A DNA stretch of 64,000 nucleotides from Candidatus Saccharimonadota bacterium (lineage in GTDB: Bacteria > Patescibacteriota > Saccharimonadia > Saccharimonadales > Saccharimonadaceae): contig JAFQXL010000004.1 in assembly GCA_017406985.1 (NCBI GenBank), forward strand, positions 59,708-123,707. The letters are read 5' to 3'. The first letter of the stretch is position 1. Each line of letters begins with the position of its first letter. Below the pieces are notes generated by a model. It ran no database searches. It was given only the letters and a program-made list of their open reading frames with translations, and was not told the origin of the DNA. Both the position numbers and the translations under genes were made by a program. Shown piece after piece: positions 19,660 to 55,748 of the stretch.

Positions 19660-19778
19660 AAAATAAGCTCCTAATTTTCTCGGACTACGTAGTCCCTACC
19701 CCTGTCTTTACGGGGTAGGGCTCCTCTGCCTCAGGCGCTGGCCTTCCGGCAGGTCCTCGAAAACTAGGAGCTTATTTT
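19660..19778 (-). repeat. Structured intergenic element, copy 1 (3' of rpsH)
   Basis: Terminal inverted repeats; conserved cores shared with 36905-37058. Confidence 0.7.
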
Positions 19779-36904: not shown

Positions 36905-37058
36905 AAAAAAGTAAGTTCCTAATTTTCTCGGACTACGGAGTTCTCCGGCCCGTCTTCACGGGCGGAGCCTCCTCTGCCTGAGCTTCGCTCACGCGTCCCA
37001 AGGGGCGAACGCTAGCTGAGCTCCGGCAGGTCCTCGAAAACTAGGAAACTTACTTTTT
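36905..37058 (-). repeat. Structured intergenic element, copy 2 (3' of rnc)
   Basis: Same conserved cores as 19660-19778, with compensatory changes in the stems. Confidence 0.7.
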
Positions 37059-48639: not shown

Positions 48640-48716
48640 TGGTGAGCTGGGAGGGGCTCGAACCCTCGACACCGGGCTTAAAAGGCCCGTGCTCTAACCA
48701 GCTGAGCTACCAGCCC
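48640..48716 (-). tRNA. tRNA-Lys(UUU)
   Basis: Cloverleaf with CGGGC-CTTTTAA-GCCCG anticodon arm and encoded CCA; long terminator-like hairpin at ~48598-48640. Confidence 0.95.
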
Positions 48717-48780
48717 ACAACGAGCGAGTCAATGTCTCGCACGTTAACTATTATACTCTATTTTTCTCGAAAAATCAACC

Positions 48781-49665
48781 CTAGATTTCGATAAGCTCGT
48801 ATTCGCGTGAGCCGAGGCCGAGTTTTTCGGCGTATGGAAGGATTTCGCGGCCGAGACGAGAATCAATACGCTCCTTTAATTTCTCAGCACCAGAATCTTT
48901 CGAGTTCCAAACCATATCGATAAATGCTTGGTCATTCGCGACCGGATCGAGCGAAGCGACAATACCTAAATCTTCCATCACTGGATCATCTTGGTTCGCG
49001 TCGCAGTCACAAGAAGTCGAAATCGCGTTCATAACCGTAATATAAATAATCTGTTTTCCTTGAGACTTTACATAGTCCGCGACCGCCGTCGCCGCTTCCG
49101 CCATAGATTCAATAAAATCAATTTGTTCATGCTCGTCAGACCAACAAGCGTCTGGATCTTCAGTATGGCCGGCGGAATGGATATAAGCTTTACCATTTCT
49201 TGAAGCGATACCGATTGACTGGTTTTTTAAGTTTGCGCCGAAACCGCCCATCATGTGTCCTTTAGCGTGCGCAAGGTTAATATAAGAATCGTAATTATCC
49301 CAGTTTTTACCGATTAAGTCATACTTTAAGTGTTTACCGTTTTTAACCGGAATCTTTATTTCGCCATCCGCGTCCATAATATCGACATTAGCAAAGCTCA
49401 TAAACCCATGCTCCTCGGCAACTTTAAGGTGATCTGAGGCGGTGTTTCGCGCACCTGGATAAGCAGTATTACATTCTAGAATCGTTCCGTTTAAACTTTT
49501 CACGAACGGGCCAATTAAATCCGCCTTAAGATAGCCCTTTGCGCCTTTTTCACCGGTCGAGACTTTAACGCCGATTTTTCCAGTTAGTTCAATACCGAGC
49601 GCTCGATAAATCTTCTCGAGACCAGCCGGACTAATTTCCCTTGTAAAATAAACTTTTGAGCTCAT
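48781..49665 (-). CDS. DUF362-family protein
   Basis: 'VKVSTGE', 'ECNTAY', 'LAHAKGHMMGGFGANLKN', 'CDC', 'ASLDPVANDQA'. Confidence 0.8.
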   Translation of the reverse strand: MSSKVYFTREISPAGLEKIYRALGIELTGKIGVKVSTGEKGAKGYLKADLIGPFVKSLNGTILECNTAYPGARNTASDHLKVAEEHGFMSFANVDIMDADGEIKIPVKNGKHLKYDLIGKNWDNYDSYINLAHAKGHMMGGFGANLKNQSIGIASRNGKAYIHSAGHTEDPDACWSDEHEQIDFIESMAEAATAVADYVKSQGKQIIYITVMNAISTSCDCDANQDDPVMEDLGIVASLDPVANDQAFIDMVWNSKDSGAEKLKERIDSRLGREILPYAEKLGLGSREYELIEI

Positions 49666-49687
49666 AATTCTCCTTTTCTATATTATA

Positions 49688-51220
49688 TCAGAAATTATGG
49701 AGAAACTTCATCGCGAGAATACAGCTATTGATAAAAATCCCGAAGAGAAAGACATAGTCTACACTTAAAGGTTTTTTGGATTTTTCAGACTTAAGTGGGC
49801 AAAAGATTAAAGGAATTAACCCGACGAGCGGGAGGAAATAGCGCCCTTGAGTTCCCTCGATAATTACTTCGTCGGTTTTAGTATATTGCCACTGTGTAAA
49901 AGAGACGAAATAAATTAAACTAATAACGATAATTGGGATTAGCCAGTAAATATACTTCTCAATTCTTTTTAAAACGATTTTCTCGGAATTACGAACACAG
50001 AGTAAAACAAGAAGAACCAAGGCAAGGTAAAGGTAGATATCAACGAGCGGAACATAATGCCCGTAAGCGAGATTTAAACCTAGCCCAGATTCCGCATAAT
50101 AACCCGGATTCGCGCCGAGCGCAGTTCCGACCATCATAACTAAAAATCTTAAAAGATTCGCGAGAACAAAACTTAAGTTTTCCGTATTGGCACTAACGGA
50201 AGATTCTTGAGTTAACATCCAAGAAAGATTTACGACGAGCGCGAGCGCAAAGCTTAAAGCTAAATGAAGATATTTATGCCATTTTTTCTTAAACTTATTT
50301 GCCGGAATTAAGAAAAACAGCAGAAAGAGCGGAAGATAAATAATCTTTTTACAGATTGAAACGAGTGTCGTTAAAAGATAAATCGAGGCAATCTGTTTTT
50401 TATTTAATTTTTTATCGTCGCCGTAAATATATTTAAAGGCTAAAGCCGTTAAAAGCAGAGCGGAACCGATTAAAAGCCCGTCGGCAGAATAAGCCATTCC
50501 CTGCTGTAACATTTCCGGAAAGAAAGCGAAGAAGACGAAAAATTCTTTAAACTTCGGGACAAGTTTAATCGCGAAGAAGCAGAGAATAAGAAAGACTATA
50601 AGCGCGAAAATCCGCCCGAGATACATTGTTAAGACAATCGGAAGATGTAAAAACTTTCCGACTAAAATCCCCATGACCTGCGGAGCATAGACAACAGGAT
50701 GATAACCGGCGGTATTTGAATAAGACCAACACCAAAGTTCGTCGCTAGTTTTAGAGAGAAAATTATCTTTTAATTTTTTATAATATTCCGAGTCGCCTTG
50801 TGCATTGTTTAGAACTTCCCAATAAGTCCGCGAGATACAAGAGCGATAATCGCCGTTTTCGTCCTTTTCGCCGATTAGTTTTCCTTCGGAAATCGCATAG
50901 GCACGGAAGATATGGCCGATTTCGTCCGGAAGCTGATTCATTGGGGTTAAGAAAACGTGCGCTAACCCGAGAATTCCCGCGAGGGCGAGAAAAATCCTTT
51001 CGATTTTCCAATTTTTCTTTTTTAAGAAATTATATAGAACAACTAGTCCGACTTCGGCGACGATTTGAATTAAAATTAGCGGGATTAGATATTTAGCGTG
51101 TTTTCCGGTATCGACTTTTTCATAGAGAAAATTATAAGCGAGAAGAACCGAATTTAAAGCGATAAGTCCGAGAGAGACTTTCCAATATTTCTTAAAAAAT
51201 GTTTTTAAAACTTCTTTCAT
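49688..51220 (-). CDS. Polytopic membrane protein, DUF2142 / GT-C-like
   Basis: 'PDEIGH', 'YHPVVYAPQ', 'QGRYFLP'; many TM segments. Confidence 0.75.
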   Translation of the reverse strand: MKEVLKTFFKKYWKVSLGLIALNSVLLAYNFLYEKVDTGKHAKYLIPLILIQIVAEVGLVVLYNFLKKKNWKIERIFLALAGILGLAHVFLTPMNQLPDEIGHIFRAYAISEGKLIGEKDENGDYRSCISRTYWEVLNNAQGDSEYYKKLKDNFLSKTSDELWCWSYSNTAGYHPVVYAPQVMGILVGKFLHLPIVLTMYLGRIFALIVFLILCFFAIKLVPKFKEFFVFFAFFPEMLQQGMAYSADGLLIGSALLLTALAFKYIYGDDKKLNKKQIASIYLLTTLVSICKKIIYLPLFLLFFLIPANKFKKKWHKYLHLALSFALALVVNLSWMLTQESSVSANTENLSFVLANLLRFLVMMVGTALGANPGYYAESGLGLNLAYGHYVPLVDIYLYLALVLLVLLCVRNSEKIVLKRIEKYIYWLIPIIVISLIYFVSFTQWQYTKTDEVIIEGTQGRYFLPLVGLIPLIFCPLKSEKSKKPLSVDYVFLFGIFINSCILAMKFLHNF

Positions 51221-51226
51221 TTAACC

Positions 51227-51571
51227 TCACTTTATAATCATTAAGAGAACACCGACTAAAACTAAAAGCGAGCCGGAAATCTTTGAGGCGGTCATAGGCT
51301 CATGGAAGAAGAAGACGGCGGTTAACATCAAGAGGATATAAACTAGACCGACCGTAACCGGAGAAACAAAAGAAAGTTCGAGCCGAGAGAGTAAAACCGT
51401 ATAAAGGACAAAGCTAACGCCATAGCTCAAAATCCCGAAGAGAGTTATAAGCGAGACCGGAAGGTTAATTAAAGGGACAGTAAAAAGCTCTTCGGCGCTT
51501 GCGCCGGCTTTTAAAAGCGTCGAGCCGACAACCGCGAAAACCACATATAAAGCGATATAAACCCAAGTCAT
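51227..51571 (-). CDS. Small 4-TM SMR/EamA-like membrane protein
   Basis: 114 aa with four hydrophobic helices; 'LSRLELSFVSP'. Confidence 0.7.
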   Translation of the reverse strand: MTWVYIALYVVFAVVGSTLLKAGASAEELFTVPLINLPVSLITLFGILSYGVSFVLYTVLLSRLELSFVSPVTVGLVYILLMLTAVFFFHEPMTASKISGSLLVLVGVLLMIIK

Positions 51572-52623
51572 CTTTTATTTCCTTTCTCGACGATTTCGGA
51601 CATTTTCTGAACCGTTTTTAGGCCCATTTCCGCCGATAAATATTTGTTCTCTTTTCTAGTTTCAACTGCCTTGATAAACTCGGCTAAAACCGTTTCGTGT
51701 CCATAAAGCAGGTTCTTTGAAATCATTTTAAAGCCATTTTTAATAAAACCGAGGCGGTATTGGTTTCCGCGCGAAAAATCGTTTTTAAAGACTTCTTTCG
51801 CATAATGTTCGCCGTCGGTCGGGAGATCTACTAAAATATCTTTAAAAAGGTCATAATAAATAATTCGCTTCTTAAAACAAAGACAATAATACCACTCACA
51901 GACTGGCGAATTAAAGTTTAAATACATATGAGTCGGGACTTTTCCGGCAACGAGATTGACCGAGAGGAGGCTCGGAGTATTATCTTCCTTGTCTGCGCCA
52001 TAGAGCGCGTAAGAGTTTTTAATTTCAAGCTCTCCGCCATGTCGCATTAAAAGATAAATAAAATGTGCCGCTTCGTCATAAAATAATCCCATCGGTAGTT
52101 CCTTATACCAGGTCGGGAGACGGCGATCACGATTTGTCAACTGGACTTCGGTTATCGACTGGATTTCGCCATATTTTTTCGTTTCGACGATTTCGTTAAT
52201 CTTTTTCATCCCGCTCGTAAAGTTAAAATTATGGACGACGTTTAAGATTTTATTTTTCTTCTTCGCGAGCGCGATTAACTCTTTTGCTTCTTTTTCGTTC
52301 ATTGTCATCGGTTTTTCGACGAGAACGTCCTTATCTAGAAGCAGGGCCATTTTGGCGAGCGGATAATGCTCCTTCGGGGGAGTTCCAATCGAGACCGCAT
52401 CGACTTCAGAAAACCACTCACATTTTCGGACTTTTTCAATGTCATTTTTCGGATCATTTACAATTAGGCTATTTTTAATTCCCTGTTCTCGACAGGTTCT
52501 CTCGACGTGTTTTTTATTTGAGCCGAGAACGCCGACAATTTCGACATTTTTAAGTTTTCTTAAGGCCGGAATATGGCGCGTATTCGAGATGTTTCCGCCG
52601 CCGATTATACAAACTTTAATCAT
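51568..52623 (-). CDS. Gfo/Idh/MocA-family NAD(P)-dependent oxidoreductase
   Basis: 'IIGGGNIS', 'VLVEKPM'. Confidence 0.88.
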   Translation of the reverse strand: MIKVCIIGGGNISNTRHIPALRKLKNVEIVGVLGSNKKHVERTCREQGIKNSLIVNDPKNDIEKVRKCEWFSEVDAVSIGTPPKEHYPLAKMALLLDKDVLVEKPMTMNEKEAKELIALAKKKNKILNVVHNFNFTSGMKKINEIVETKKYGEIQSITEVQLTNRDRRLPTWYKELPMGLFYDEAAHFIYLLMRHGGELEIKNSYALYGADKEDNTPSLLSVNLVAGKVPTHMYLNFNSPVCEWYYCLCFKKRIIYYDLFKDILVDLPTDGEHYAKEVFKNDFSRGNQYRLGFIKNGFKMISKNLLYGHETVLAEFIKAVETRKENKYLSAEMGLKTVQKMSEIVEKGNKR

Positions 52624-53686
52624 TTTCTAACTCCTTTCTGACTTTTTCTGCTGTTTTTTCTAAAGTAAAGTTTTCGCTAACTTTCTGAAAGATTTTTTCG
52701 CCATATTTTCGGATTTTTTCGGGCTCTTTTAGAAGTTTCTCTAGTTTTTCAGTTAAATCTTCCGCGTTTTCTTTTAAGATAATTCCGGAACTATCGTCAA
52801 TTAACTCGGTTATCCCGCCACGGTCGGTCGCGAGAACCGCGCACTTTTTCGACGCCGCCTCGAGGACAACCGTCGGGAAGCCTTCGGGGTATAAAGTCGG
52901 GTAGAGAAAGATATCGGTTTTTTCGAGTTCTTTTAAGACTTCATCTTTCGAGATAAATCCAGTAAAGTAAACATCTTTATATTCTTCTTTTAAAGAGTTA
53001 TAGAGTGGACCGTCGCCAATAACTATTAGTTCTAGGTCGAATTTATTTTTAAGTTTTCTAAAACTTTTTAGGACGAGCCTTATACCTTTTTCTTCAATCA
53101 GTCTTCCGGCGAAAGCGAGCCTAATTTCGGAGTTTTTCGGCTTTTTAAAATCTTTCACCTTAACGGCATTATAAAAAATCCCTTGAGTCTTTATCCCAAG
53201 CGTCTCGAGCCAGCTCGCGGTTCTTTTCGAGACAGCATAAAACTTCGGATTATATTTTAATATTTTCGGAAGACAAAATCTTTCATAAGGTTTTAAAATA
53301 TAGTCGCTTGAGTGGTCGATAATAATCGGGCGAATATTTTTAAGTTTAGCGAATTTTAATCCTTCGAAAGTCGTATAATAATATCTTGTATTGATAATAA
53401 CATAATCGACTTTTTCGGCTTTAATTCTCTTCATCAAATCCTTATATTCGGCGTTCTTTTTCGGAATCGGAAAACGCTCTTTTAAGAAGTTTTTAACCGG
53501 GAGACGAAAAATCTTAACACCAGCTTTCTCTTCATAGCTTTTAGACTTCGGGACGTTCGAAGTAACGACAATAATATTATAATCTTTCTTTAATTCTTCG
53601 ATTAAAGCGGAAGTATAAGTTTCGACTCCGCCGAGGTGCGGAAGAAAGAAGCCATTAAAGAAGATAATTGTTTTATTTTTTGCCAT
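52616..53686 (-). CDS. GT4-family glycosyltransferase
   Basis: 'GGVE', 'FAGRLIEEKG', 'EGFPTVVLEAA'. Confidence 0.9.
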   Translation of the reverse strand: MAKNKTIIFFNGFFLPHLGGVETYTSALIEELKKDYNIIVVTSNVPKSKSYEEKAGVKIFRLPVKNFLKERFPIPKKNAEYKDLMKRIKAEKVDYVIINTRYYYTTFEGLKFAKLKNIRPIIIDHSSDYILKPYERFCLPKILKYNPKFYAVSKRTASWLETLGIKTQGIFYNAVKVKDFKKPKNSEIRLAFAGRLIEEKGIRLVLKSFRKLKNKFDLELIVIGDGPLYNSLKEEYKDVYFTGFISKDEVLKELEKTDIFLYPTLYPEGFPTVVLEAASKKCAVLATDRGGITELIDDSSGIILKENAEDLTEKLEKLLKEPEKIRKYGEKIFQKVSENFTLEKTAEKVRKELEND

Positions 53687-54008
53687 TTTTCTTCGCCCTT
53701 AAAATATTTAATTCTTCGGTCGTATTAGTTAGTTTTTGTTCAAGCTCGTCGATTTTCTTATCTTGAATAAAACTCATAATAAAGAGAGCAGAAACGCAGA
53801 TAGTTAAAAGCAGGGCCGGAGGATAGCTAATTCCGAGCAGGCTCGCTACCCAGTCGAGAGAATAGGGGAAACAAGCTAAAACTAACATCGCGATACAGAA
53901 AAGAACCCAAGCGAACGAAACCGAAACGCTTAATTTTTCGCGCCGAATCGAAGAGATTATATAGATAATAATTATAATAGCGATAACGATAAAAGGCAGG
54001 TTATTCAT
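53673..54008 (-). CDS. DUF2304-family small membrane protein
   Basis: 'LGISYPPALL', three TMs, coiled-coil tail; follows the GT2; start revised to MNNLPF. Confidence 0.75.
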   Translation of the reverse strand: MNNLPFIVIAIIIIIYIISSIRREKLSVSVSFAWVLFCIAMLVLACFPYSLDWVASLLGISYPPALLLTICVSALFIMSFIQDKKIDELEQKLTNTTEELNILRAKKNGKK

Positions 54009-54723
54009 ATCTTCTCCCGACAAATTTTATAAAAATAATTACGCAAGAATAAAGTTGTTTAATCATATAGCCGACAGGGCTAAAAAATCCGTCATGCATC
54101 GAGGTGCCGTTTTTTCTCTGTTTCATTTTAACCGGAACCTCGATAATTTTATATTTCTTCATCAACATTTCGATAATTAAGCCGGCGTCAGGATATTCCG
54201 GATAGGCGCCGGACTCAGAATAATACTCAATTACACGGCGATTTAGAACTTGAAGTCCGGTCAAGGGGTCTTTTATTGTTTTATGACAGAAAATCCGAAT
54301 TAAGGATTCAAAAAGGCTCGTCCCAGCTCGGCGGAAAAACGGAGATTTATAGCCAGTGTTTTTCTTAAAGCGAGAGCCGAGAACAATATCGGCGTTCTTT
54401 TCTATCGCGGCGTCGAGACATTTTTTCGCCTCGGAGGAGAGATGTTGTCCGTCGGCATCCATCTGAATTACATAGTCATAATTATTTTCTTTCGCATATT
54501 TAATTCCGGTTTGAACCGACATCGCATAGCCCATGTTGTGGACATTGTTGATGTATGTACACCCCTTAACGCAACGAATTCTAGCCTCAGTCCGATCGGT
54601 CGAACAATCATTTATCACAAGGATATCGGCAGTTTTTATTTCCTTTTTAATATCAGAAATAACCGTCTCAATTGTTTCGGCTTCGTTATGAGCCGGAATA
54701 ACAACAATAGTCCTCGCTTTCAT
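54001..54723 (-). CDS. GT2 DPM1-like polyprenol-phosphate glycosyltransferase
   Basis: 'VIPAHNE', 'INDCSTD', 'QMDADGQH', 'VLGSRF'; start revised to MKARTIV. Confidence 0.9.
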   Translation of the reverse strand: MKARTIVVIPAHNEAETIETVISDIKKEIKTADILVINDCSTDRTEARIRCVKGCTYINNVHNMGYAMSVQTGIKYAKENNYDYVIQMDADGQHLSSEAKKCLDAAIEKNADIVLGSRFKKNTGYKSPFFRRAGTSLFESLIRIFCHKTIKDPLTGLQVLNRRVIEYYSESGAYPEYPDAGLIIEMLMKKYKIIEVPVKMKQRKNGTSMHDGFFSPVGYMIKQLYSCVIIFIKFVGRRYE

Positions 54724-54760: not shown

Positions 54761-55115
54761 AAAAAGCCCTCGAACGATAATCTGTCCGAGGGCATATATG
54801 AAAAACTGAAAGCTAGGACTGTTCGAAAGTTATGCGCCTAAAGCGGCGCGGTTCCAAAATAGAAACTTCTTTCGATCTATGGGGCGGGCCAATGGGCCCA
54901 TGGTGGTGGTTTTCGTCTTCCTTTGCACACTTCGGCGCCCATCTGGCGCCCGTTTTCTCGCACATTTCTTACCGCCAAACGGCGGAGGAGGCAGAACGAA
55001 CAGCCCATAGCTTCAGTTATTCGCCTTAGAGAACAATATGTATTATGGGTGAGGTTCGAACACTTGACTCACACTTGAGATCTGGTTATCCCCTCACCCT
55101 TAGTGAAACATATCC
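54761..55115 (-). ncRNA. Candidate ~350-nt structured orphan RNA
   Basis: Perfect TTGACA-17-TATAAT promoter (55122-55150); ~21-bp closing stem 54804-54825/54997-55018; several GC hairpins; terminator 54766-54793 plus T5. Confidence 0.55.
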
Positions 55116-55127
55116 AATTATATTATA

Positions 55128-55748
55128 CTACTTTTTAGATTTTTTGTCAACAATTTTCGCTTCTTTTGCGTTATCTAAAAGCGATTTGGCGGATTTTTTC
55201 GCCGATTTAAAGTTCTCTTTAACGTCGTCGACGCGAGCCTTAATTGTCATAGCTTCAATTAAACCGGAGATACCATAAATCATCATTAAAACACCCGCGA
55301 TTTGCATAATCATTTCGGTCGATTCTCCCGGATGAACAAAGAGGATAACTCCACAGATTAGCCCGATAATATTTGAAATAATCGTCATTGTGTAGACGGT
55401 AGTATTTCTCATGTTTTGCATGAAGAGGAGCGAAGAAACGCTTGTAATAATCATATAAAGGCCGAGGATAATCATTACGATATTAAGAGTTTCCGGATGC
55501 ATCGCGATTAAAAGTCCTAACATAAAGAAGATAATCCCGACGACAATTCCGGCGGAGCCGTTTCTACTAGCACTTCTTAAAATCATACCGAAGCCGGTCG
55601 TAACCAAAATCGCAACCATAATCCAGCGTAAGACATTTAAAATCGCTCCCGGAAAGATGAAGAATATTAAGCCTAGCGCCGTCAAAATTAAGGTCGAGGC
55701 TATCGTCATTCCGATAAAGCCGTTGATTTTTCGTTCAATTTTCTCCAT
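55128..55748 (-). CDS. DUF308/HdeD-like membrane protein
   Basis: Six hydrophobic segments in repeated hairpins with 'FIFPG', 'MHPE' and 'VHPG' loops. Confidence 0.75.
   Translation of the reverse strand: MEKIERKINGFIGMTIASTLILTALGLIFFIFPGAILNVLRWIMVAILVTTGFGMILRSASRNGSAGIVVGIIFFMLGLLIAMHPETLNIVMIILGLYMIITSVSSLLFMQNMRNTTVYTMTIISNIIGLICGVILFVHPGESTEMIMQIAGVLMMIYGISGLIEAMTIKARVDDVKENFKSAKKSAKSLLDNAKEAKIVDKKSKK

Follow-up and report, generated by a model that had tools for sequence, protein, structure and literature searches.

The 64,000-nt stretch of DNA analysed here (hereafter the window) belongs to contig JAFQXL010000004.1 of a Candidatus Saccharibacteria genome, G000, and carries on its minus strand a gene-free interval that is probably a stand-alone gene for a structured non-coding RNA (ncRNA) of ~355 nt. 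The RNA appears to represent an undescribed family of a small rumen/gut clade of Candidatus Saccharibacteria, in which ~14 diverged relatives were found. A preliminary description of the window, based on its sequence alone, had proposed a stand-alone structured ncRNA of an undescribed kind and had called it an orphan. The proposal has held: the RNA matches no Rfam family, its promoter and terminator are conserved, five of its helices covary and the open reading frames (ORFs) within it are not conserved. The label of orphan was wrong, since the search for homologues and covariation in Saccharibacteria that the same description had suggested recovered a family.

Most of the relatives were reached by synteny, via homologues of the DUF308 gene lying upstream of the RNA, and the rest with a purpose-built covariance model. 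Neither BLAST searches of 60 relatives with the RNA as query nor a covariance model made from the single sequence (R1) and run against 40 genomes of the genus gave a match; these searches were either too insensitive or directed at the wrong species. Contigs of the same species carry a near-identical element. On the fetched contigs that extend past the DUF308 homologue (97% to ~42% identity) a gene-free gap of ~390–810 nt comes next, left empty by the gene callers on all contigs and present regardless of the following gene, with the exception of locus L069. In every complete relative the gap begins with a perfect TTGACA-16/17-TATAAT at the 3' end of DUF308, and a GC-rich hairpin with a U-run stands at the equivalent place in all of them, promoter and GC-rich terminator being kept in position though the identity of the DUF308 protein drops to 40–47%. 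The gaps share a series of ordered blocks: AACUGGG, GUUCG, a CU-rich tract, two RUGUGC motifs, AACCACCACC, UCGAAAG, CUUUCGAAC and CCCAGUUU. The relatives are recorded as Candidatus Saccharibacteria metagenome-assembled genomes (MAGs), one of them from roe-deer rumen.

Among the recovered loci, R1 matched L049, L058 (82.9 bits), L050 (41.2), L056 (23.6) and L059 (13.9), and a family covariance model built from 16 sequences (R2) scored all 19 copies at 50.7–177 bits. R2 identified the RNA in 7 of the 369 species of the genus (G000, G495, G496, G617, G653, G654 and G736), as a single copy per genome, and in a set of 401 genomes covering 255 genera of the order its sole match was the window's own genome; these large runs scored the five best candidates per genome, and weak relatives were possibly missed. 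With seven positive species and none in ~397 genomes from 254 further genera of the order, the RNA is not a lineage-wide housekeeping RNA, and neither 6S nor signal recognition particle (SRP) RNA.

The family consensus is a multi-branched core, in which helices P1 and P2 close P3, P5 and P6, with P7–P9 inside P6, together with 5' hairpins, the whole measuring 300–390 nt; eight or more conserved helices span the ~230-nt core. In the model-fitted alignment of 19 sequences (A6), 93.3% of cells fall in standard pairs compared with 78% in column shuffles, compensatory changes are seen at 20 of 33 pairs, none of 500 shuffles reaches the observed covariation, and sliding the partner columns brings pairing down to 31–46%. 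The alignment produced by MAFFT only (A4) is 89% paired, with compensatory changes in 15 of the 33 pairs and slid controls at 32–48%. Five helices are supported by such changes. P1 and P2 each have three to four pairs that covary between GC and AU across the family, all five pairs of P5 covary (its loop in the relatives being UAYAC or NAUU), as do all seven of P8, a hairpin inside P6 in most relatives, and 5' hairpin A covaries in the family alignment. P6 (CGAAAGU/ACUUUCG) is 97% paired and nearly invariant in sequence. Since the 5' hairpins are variable (the window copy has no hairpin A, and one or both are missing from L058 and L084), what defines the family is the core that P1 closes.

A CU-rich tract is found in all members (CCUCC, CUCCUU or CCCUUC) and is followed by a hairpin with compensatory stems (CCGCC/GGCGG, CCACU/AGUGG, CCCCC/GGGGG and CUCUC/GAGAG). 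The preliminary description had noted here an exposed tract, CCUCCUCC, resembling an anti-Shine–Dalgarno sequence; its conservation as the CU-rich tract is borne out, but its exposure is not, as in the relatives it is mostly predicted to pair with a purine-rich tract. Exactly two RUGUGC motifs are present in 18 of the 19 members, at a spacing of 5–31 nt. GUGC is self-complementary through two G-U pairs, so that the two motifs could form the helix P3. A hint that they do so comes from a single sequence, L085, in which motif 1 reads ACAC opposite GUGC, converting both wobble pairs into Watson-Crick pairs (U-G and G-U to C-G and A-U). The bases A-C-C-A are invariant in A4, and AACCACCA(CC) occurs in 18 of the 19 members of A6, L085 having AACAACUAC at that place; the relatives hold one to three further ACCACC or AUCACC copies.

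Two further loci are of note beside the family. L069 (CAMZAD010000002.1), a Saccharibacteria MAG, has a DUF308 homologue of 40% identity followed by neither a consensus promoter nor an R2 match, and may mark the boundary of the RNA-bearing clade. The metagenome contig L060 (3210–3575) has the promoter, the pair of 5' hairpins, P1/P2 and RUGUGC motif 1, near-identical to those of L067; beyond ~160 nt the likeness ends and the sequence is AT-rich and unrelated. The contig represents either a copy that has been disrupted or a chimera of the assembly. More distant DUF308 homologues (≤34% identity) in the sampled genomes of the genus are followed directly by another gene, give no R2 match and were set aside as non-orthologous loci.

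The predicted RNA of the window, its signals and its parts are the following.

55122–55150, minus strand: sigma-70 promoter, −35 box TTGACA (55145–55150), 17-nt spacer, −10 box TATAAT (55122–55127); 12 of 12 consensus positions
54761–55115, minus strand: predicted RNA of ~355 nt, from a putative start ~7 nt past the −10 box to the terminator T-run
55047–55099, minus strand: 5' hairpin (family hairpin B), G-rich arm GGGUGAGG with CCUCACCC, arms 55047–55054/55092–55099; from the fold
54997–55018, minus strand: 5' strand of the closing helix, P1 AACUGAAG plus P2 GGGCUGUUCG; from fold and covariation
54972–54994, minus strand: CU-rich tract CUGCCUCCUCC (54984–54994) running into the hairpin CCGCC-GUUU-GGCGG (54972–54986)
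54958–54967, minus strand: RUGUGC motif 1 (AAAUGUGCGA)
54934–54951, minus strand: GC hairpin GGGCGCC-AGAU-GGGCGCC between the RUGUGC motifs; subgroup-specific and variable
54922–54932, minus strand: RUGUGC motif 2 (AAGUGUGCAAA)
54902–54917, minus strand: conserved block GACGAAAACCACCACC, predicted to be single-stranded
54886–54899, minus strand: hairpin P5, GGGCC-CAUU-GGCCC; five of five pairs compensatory in the family
54823–54875, minus strand: helix P6, UCGAAAG (54869–54875) with CUUUCGA (54823–54829); from the fold
54804–54825, minus strand: 3' strand of the closing helix, CGAACAGUCCUAGCUUUCAGUU, holding the family-invariant CGAAC and CAGUU
54761–54793, minus strand: intrinsic terminator, GCCCUCGGAC-loop-GUUCGAGGGC (54766–54793), then UUUUU

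The minimum free energy (MFE) of the window RNA is −132.7 kcal/mol, compared with −103.1 ± 5.2 kcal/mol for dinucleotide shuffles (z = −5.7), none of which was as good. The predicted fold includes the 5' hairpin, a closing helix of 21 bp and internal GC hairpins, all of which the preliminary description had reported. Hairpin B is kept across the family alignment as G-rich and C-rich arms, and its insert CCAGAUCUC...UGAGUCAAGU is common to the window copy, L050 and L056; hairpin A (CGCGRG...CYCGCG), present in most relatives, has been lost by the window copy. P6 of the window copy encloses two variable hairpins (54851–54866 and 54834–54849), and the hairpin loops of the RNA are GUUU, AGAU(G), CAUU, UAUUUU and GCUUUA. 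An alternative pairing described earlier (54878–54884 with 55004–55010) does exist in the window, but its UAUGGG partner is missing from the aligned relatives.

The ends of the RNA were placed from the positions of its promoter and terminator, both of which had been recognised in the preliminary description and were found as stated. The terminator stem (54793–54766) has 10 bp, seven of them GC, with the T-run TTTTTCTTT / UUUUUCUUU at its 3' side, and in the strain variant L013 a G-U pair of this stem is replaced by A-U. The GC content within the element is 0.51–0.535, against ~0.35–0.44 in the flanks. The −35 box overlaps the final codons of DUF308 (ATT GTT GAC AAA, encoding IVDK). Perfect TTGACA-16/18-TATAAT sites number only 10 in the 731-kb genome, and the RNA is most likely expressed from what looks like a strong constitutive promoter, which also suggests that it is abundant. 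The RNA would be transcribed, stable, abundant and trans-acting. Among the other nine perfect promoters, one drives rpmA (L27) via a leader of ~100 nt. Examples of the ten sites lie at C2:19741–19769, C1:36005–35977 and C3:320223–320195, and several others in G000 precede structured-looking starts free of ORFs.

Several other explanations of the element were considered. It is most improbable that it encodes a small protein, whether from a sense ORF (of 50 or 43 aa) or from an antisense one. ORFs of 32–65 aa are present on both strands, those on the sense strand of the window reaching only 32–50 aa, as the earlier remark that only small ORFs fit had implied, and in the subgroup of the window a GGNGG tract precedes the AUG of the conserved AUGUGC by 7–9 nt. 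However, the ORF starting from this AUG spans anything from 2 to 50 codons across the family, the ORF either excludes the invariant CCACC block or reads it in any of the three frames, homologues differ by 2- and 5-nt indels, and conservation follows base-pairing rather than codons. In the sequences compared, the internal ORFs are not conserved and a coding signal is absent; the conserved protein-coding signature that the preliminary description had named as the finding that would speak against an ncRNA was not found, ORF length and frame both being variable. As for RNAs of known families, the only matches of Rfam 15 in the window at gathering thresholds are four tRNAs; with the limit relaxed to E ≤ 10, all matches in the region are sub-threshold, those to His_leader, sR084 and trpB overlapping the terminator, and seven diverged relatives give nothing except the neighbouring tRNA. 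The Rfam scan proposed earlier, low scores included, has therefore returned no family match for the window copy or these relatives. ARAGORN finds no tmRNA in the window, and the earlier statement that tmRNA, RNase P and SRP signatures are lacking from the region is corroborated. RNase P RNA (C4:38991–39327, 224 bits) and tmRNA (C4:42960–43323, 70 bits) are found elsewhere in the genome, so the element is neither. A highly diverged 6S, SRP, RNase P or tmRNA that escapes the Rfam models would be in keeping with the very strong promoter and with the lack of any detectable 6S or SRP RNA in the genome, and the RNA resembles 6S in being strongly promoted and stable-looking and in having a long closing helix. 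This explanation is nevertheless exceedingly improbable. The 6S model (RF00013) has no match in the region (E ≤ 10), in the whole genome or in the seven relatives; the RNA is about twice the length of 6S, its fold is branched rather than a rod of ~180–200 nt with a central bubble, and 98% of the species in its genus lack it, as do the other sampled genera of the order. The suggestion of a 6S-like RNA in the preliminary description fails on these grounds. SRP RNA models (RF00169 and RF01854) likewise have no match in the region or the genome, nor does RF00169 in 40 relatives from 17 genera. The window RNA contains neither AGCA nor GNRA hairpin loops, whereas domain IV of SRP RNA is marked by a GNRA tetraloop and AGCA/GG internal-loop motifs. 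Moreover, no SRP RNA is to be expected, since the SRP54-type GTPase domain of Ffh and FtsY (PF00448) is also absent: it was matched neither in G000 (98% complete) nor in 19 of the 20 relatives, whereas all 14 control genomes gave a match, and the sole match among the relatives (G009) comes from a small contig in a bin that is 76% complete. The motifs GxGKTT and DTAGR occur together in no ORF.

The gene neighbourhood bears on the remaining explanations. A cis-regulatory leader (riboswitch, attenuator or T-box-like element) governing the downstream genes by termination or read-through at 54766–54793 might be suspected from the terminator placed directly after a large structured domain, from the weak His_leader and trpB matches, which are driven by that terminator, and from the short AUG-UGC ORFs, which with their Cys codons resemble leader peptides; these mini-ORFs, however, range from 2 to 50 codons. 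The gene downstream changes by lineage, being GT2, a reverse-strand 409-aa gene, DUF362, PLD, tRNA-Lys on either strand or RimK, often on the strand opposite to the RNA, and such variation argues against a leader. In the window the GT2 gene has its own TG-extended −10 box (54739–54731), 7 nt before the ATG at 54723, in agreement with the leaderless promoter reported for it earlier, and the downstream genes of the relatives likewise have their own promoters; a gene cassette and DUF362 intervene before tRNA-Lys, the neighbour of the RNA in most relatives. The variable downstream context comes close to refuting a leader, which we regard as highly unlikely. An origin in a mobile or defence element, as a remnant or an accessory RNA (retron msr/msd, transposon guide RNA or phage RNA), has in its favour the patchy distribution within the genus, a GC content above that of the flanks and the proximity to a tRNA gene in many lineages, yet is scarcely probable: no reverse transcriptase, transposase or integrase adjoins the RNA in any locus examined, the RNA is a single syntenic copy per genome whose divergence parallels that of the neighbouring DUF308 gene, and BLAST against phage, plasmid and viral collections gives no match (R2 rejected all of the 57 pattern matches in IMG/VR). 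Greater weight is due to the upstream side. The upstream gene (55128–55748) encodes a DUF308 (HdeD-like) membrane protein and follows an MMPL transporter gene; between its stop codon and the RNA there is no terminator, the first one standing at 54793, and the RNA is therefore also the 3' untranslated region (UTR) of the MMPL-DUF308 operon. The element could thus mainly be such a 3' UTR, acting as a cis stabiliser or terminator, or else a type I 3'-UTR-derived small RNA (sRNA) that base-pairs through its C-rich and CU-rich stretches. RNAs of this type have a promoter inside the upstream ORF, as MicL does in cutC and DapZ in dapB; these two are Hfq-dependent and act via a short seed, and sRNAs of the type usually work on their mRNA targets with Hfq or ProQ. 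The window RNA resembles them in having its promoter within the 3' part of the upstream coding sequence and in sharing its terminator with the upstream mRNA; the CU-rich anti-Shine–Dalgarno-like and ACCACC tracts are conserved, and MMPL-DUF308 is directly upstream in all lineages but one. That lineage, G617 (L084), argues against the 3' UTR, as the RNA has there survived the loss of the upstream genes: UppS and a gene of unknown function replace MMPL-DUF308, while the core, a perfect promoter, the terminator and the tRNA/RimK/BipA side are kept. In addition, the perfect promoter retained in all lineages indicates that the RNA is transcribed on its own, the large conserved multi-helix core exceeds the needs of a seed sRNA or a stabiliser, and tblastn with E. 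coli CsrA and Hfq finds no homologue in G000 at E ≤ 1. A role chiefly as a 3' UTR or as an sRNA derived from it is accordingly rather improbable, and the RNA is independent of its flanking genes.

The stand-alone ncRNA gene remains the best explanation, and its parts suggest how the RNA might operate. Transcription would start at the consensus sigma-70 promoter, with its −35 box inside the end of DUF308, and would be ended by the strong intrinsic terminator. The transcript would consist of a variable 5' domain with one or two hairpins and the conserved core of ~230 nt, closed by the stacked helices P1 and P2, from whose junction the RUGUGC helix or motif pair, P5, and P6 with its further hairpins are predicted to emerge. 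Invariant stretches (the CU-rich tract, GAC-AACCACCACC and the 3' tail UUUUUCC) are predicted to be single-stranded between the helices. Such a rigid multi-helix scaffold could present the two RUGUGC motifs and one to three ACCACC motifs to a protein partner. Tentatively, and with clearly less than even confidence, we take the RNA to be a subunit of a ribonucleoprotein (RNP) or a sequestering RNA that shows its motifs to such a partner; the next option is base-pairing to mRNAs via the C-rich or CU-rich stretches, and the RNA might conceivably be a ribozyme. In one version of the RNP, the RNA would dock on the Lys-rich cytoplasmic C-terminal tail of the DUF308 protein and form a membrane-anchored RNP analogous to OLE-OapA. 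In the other, the (A/U)CACCA and ACCACCA repeats would mimic tRNA 3' ends and titrate a factor recognising uncharged tRNA ends; the neighbouring tRNA-Lys ends in CUCACCA. That the RNA is the subunit of a new RNP, or a ribozyme, specific to the rumen Saccharibacteria clade seems unlikely, though worth bearing in mind.

Certain points weigh against this interpretation. The narrow spread (7 of 369 species) speaks against an essential housekeeping role. The idea of protein binding comes solely from the repeated invariant motifs; the two RUGUGC motifs may merely pair with each other, and for the CU-rich tract the predictions mostly give a paired state, in most members with the purine-rich tract. 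The family amounts to ~14 independent sequences, several of them closely related, and the shuffle statistics overstate their independence. The RNA might also have a role in cis as the 3' UTR of the MMPL-DUF308 operon.

By its properties the RNA belongs with the orphan large structured ncRNAs, which are a kind and not a homology family: it is ORF-free, longer than 200 nt, equipped with its own promoter and terminator, built of covarying helices and outside any known family. OLE, ROOL, GOLLD, raiA motif RNA and HEARO are, like the window RNA, products of stand-alone genes with their own promoter and terminator, hundreds of nucleotides long and lineage-restricted, with many covarying helices, invariant junction sequences and no function evident from gene context. 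Just as OLE adjoins oapA, the window RNA adjoins a gene for a small multi-pass membrane protein (DUF308); one lineage, however, has lost this linkage, which may be due only to the overlap of the promoter with DUF308. None of these RNAs matches the window RNA in sequence or structure (for OLE, RF01071 gave no Rfam match), and the window family is both shorter (~300–390 nt, with a core of ~230 nt) and far narrower, occurring in 7 of the 369 species of one genus. The loop motif GGUGCCCACCCCC is not present in the genome.

Saccharibacteria are ultra-small epibionts whose genomes, of ~0.7–1 Mb, have lost a good part of the usual bacterial gene set. An ORF-free gene of ~350 nt that has one of the ten strongest promoters of such a genome and whose fold is kept by compensatory changes is very likely useful to its bearer. 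It is rare for a new large structured RNA to be found, and several such RNAs have proved to be ribozymes, RNP scaffolds or self-assembling cages. The family adds a compact and well-delimited example, with a clear core, ~14 diverged sequences and testable motifs (RUGUGC, ACCACC and the CU-rich tract). The narrow distribution reduces the general importance of the family and makes it a candidate marker of host- or niche-specific adaptation in rumen Saccharibacteria.

Beside the RNA itself, the SRP pathway (SRP RNA, Ffh and FtsY) looks absent from G000 and its relatives. Regular-expression scans for SRP domain IV gave only coding-region or chance matches: the candidate at C3:282129 lies inside an ORF whose translation looks by eye, without a family search, like MscL, and the one at window position ~5782 has no Rfam SRP match. 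Full-text searches of the literature yielded nothing on ncRNAs of Saccharibacteria or on SRP in these bacteria; in the TM7x transcriptome paper, SRP genes are mentioned only under locus tags that appear to be those of the host. Two dispersed elements of the window, at 19660–19778 and 36905–37058, were dismissed as kin of the RNA, having only a short CU-rich word in common with it and a different architecture.

The flanks of the RNA offer two further observations. The DUF308 protein has a Lys-rich tail at its end, and its last conserved residues, E-A-x-I-V-D-K-K, share their DNA with the −35 box (window 55128–55250), and the conservation of this end of the protein may partly reflect the constraint on the promoter. 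On the other side, the window genes downstream form a GT2/DUF2304/GT4/oxidoreductase cluster. The interval 48640–54723 holds a six-gene cassette for cell-envelope glycosylation (GT2, DUF2304, GT4, GFO/IDH oxidoreductase, SMR/EamA-like and DUF2142) plus DUF362, which together separate the terminator of the RNA from tRNA-Lys(UUU) (48640–48716), with PLD and RimK beyond. The most persistent downstream neighbour in the family is this tRNA-Lys(UUU), in either orientation, followed by RimK-BipA. As DUF362 or tRNA-Lys comes directly after the RNA in the relatives, the cassette is read as an insertion in the lineage of the window, and the GT2 gene with its leaderless-type promoter as unrelated to the RNA.

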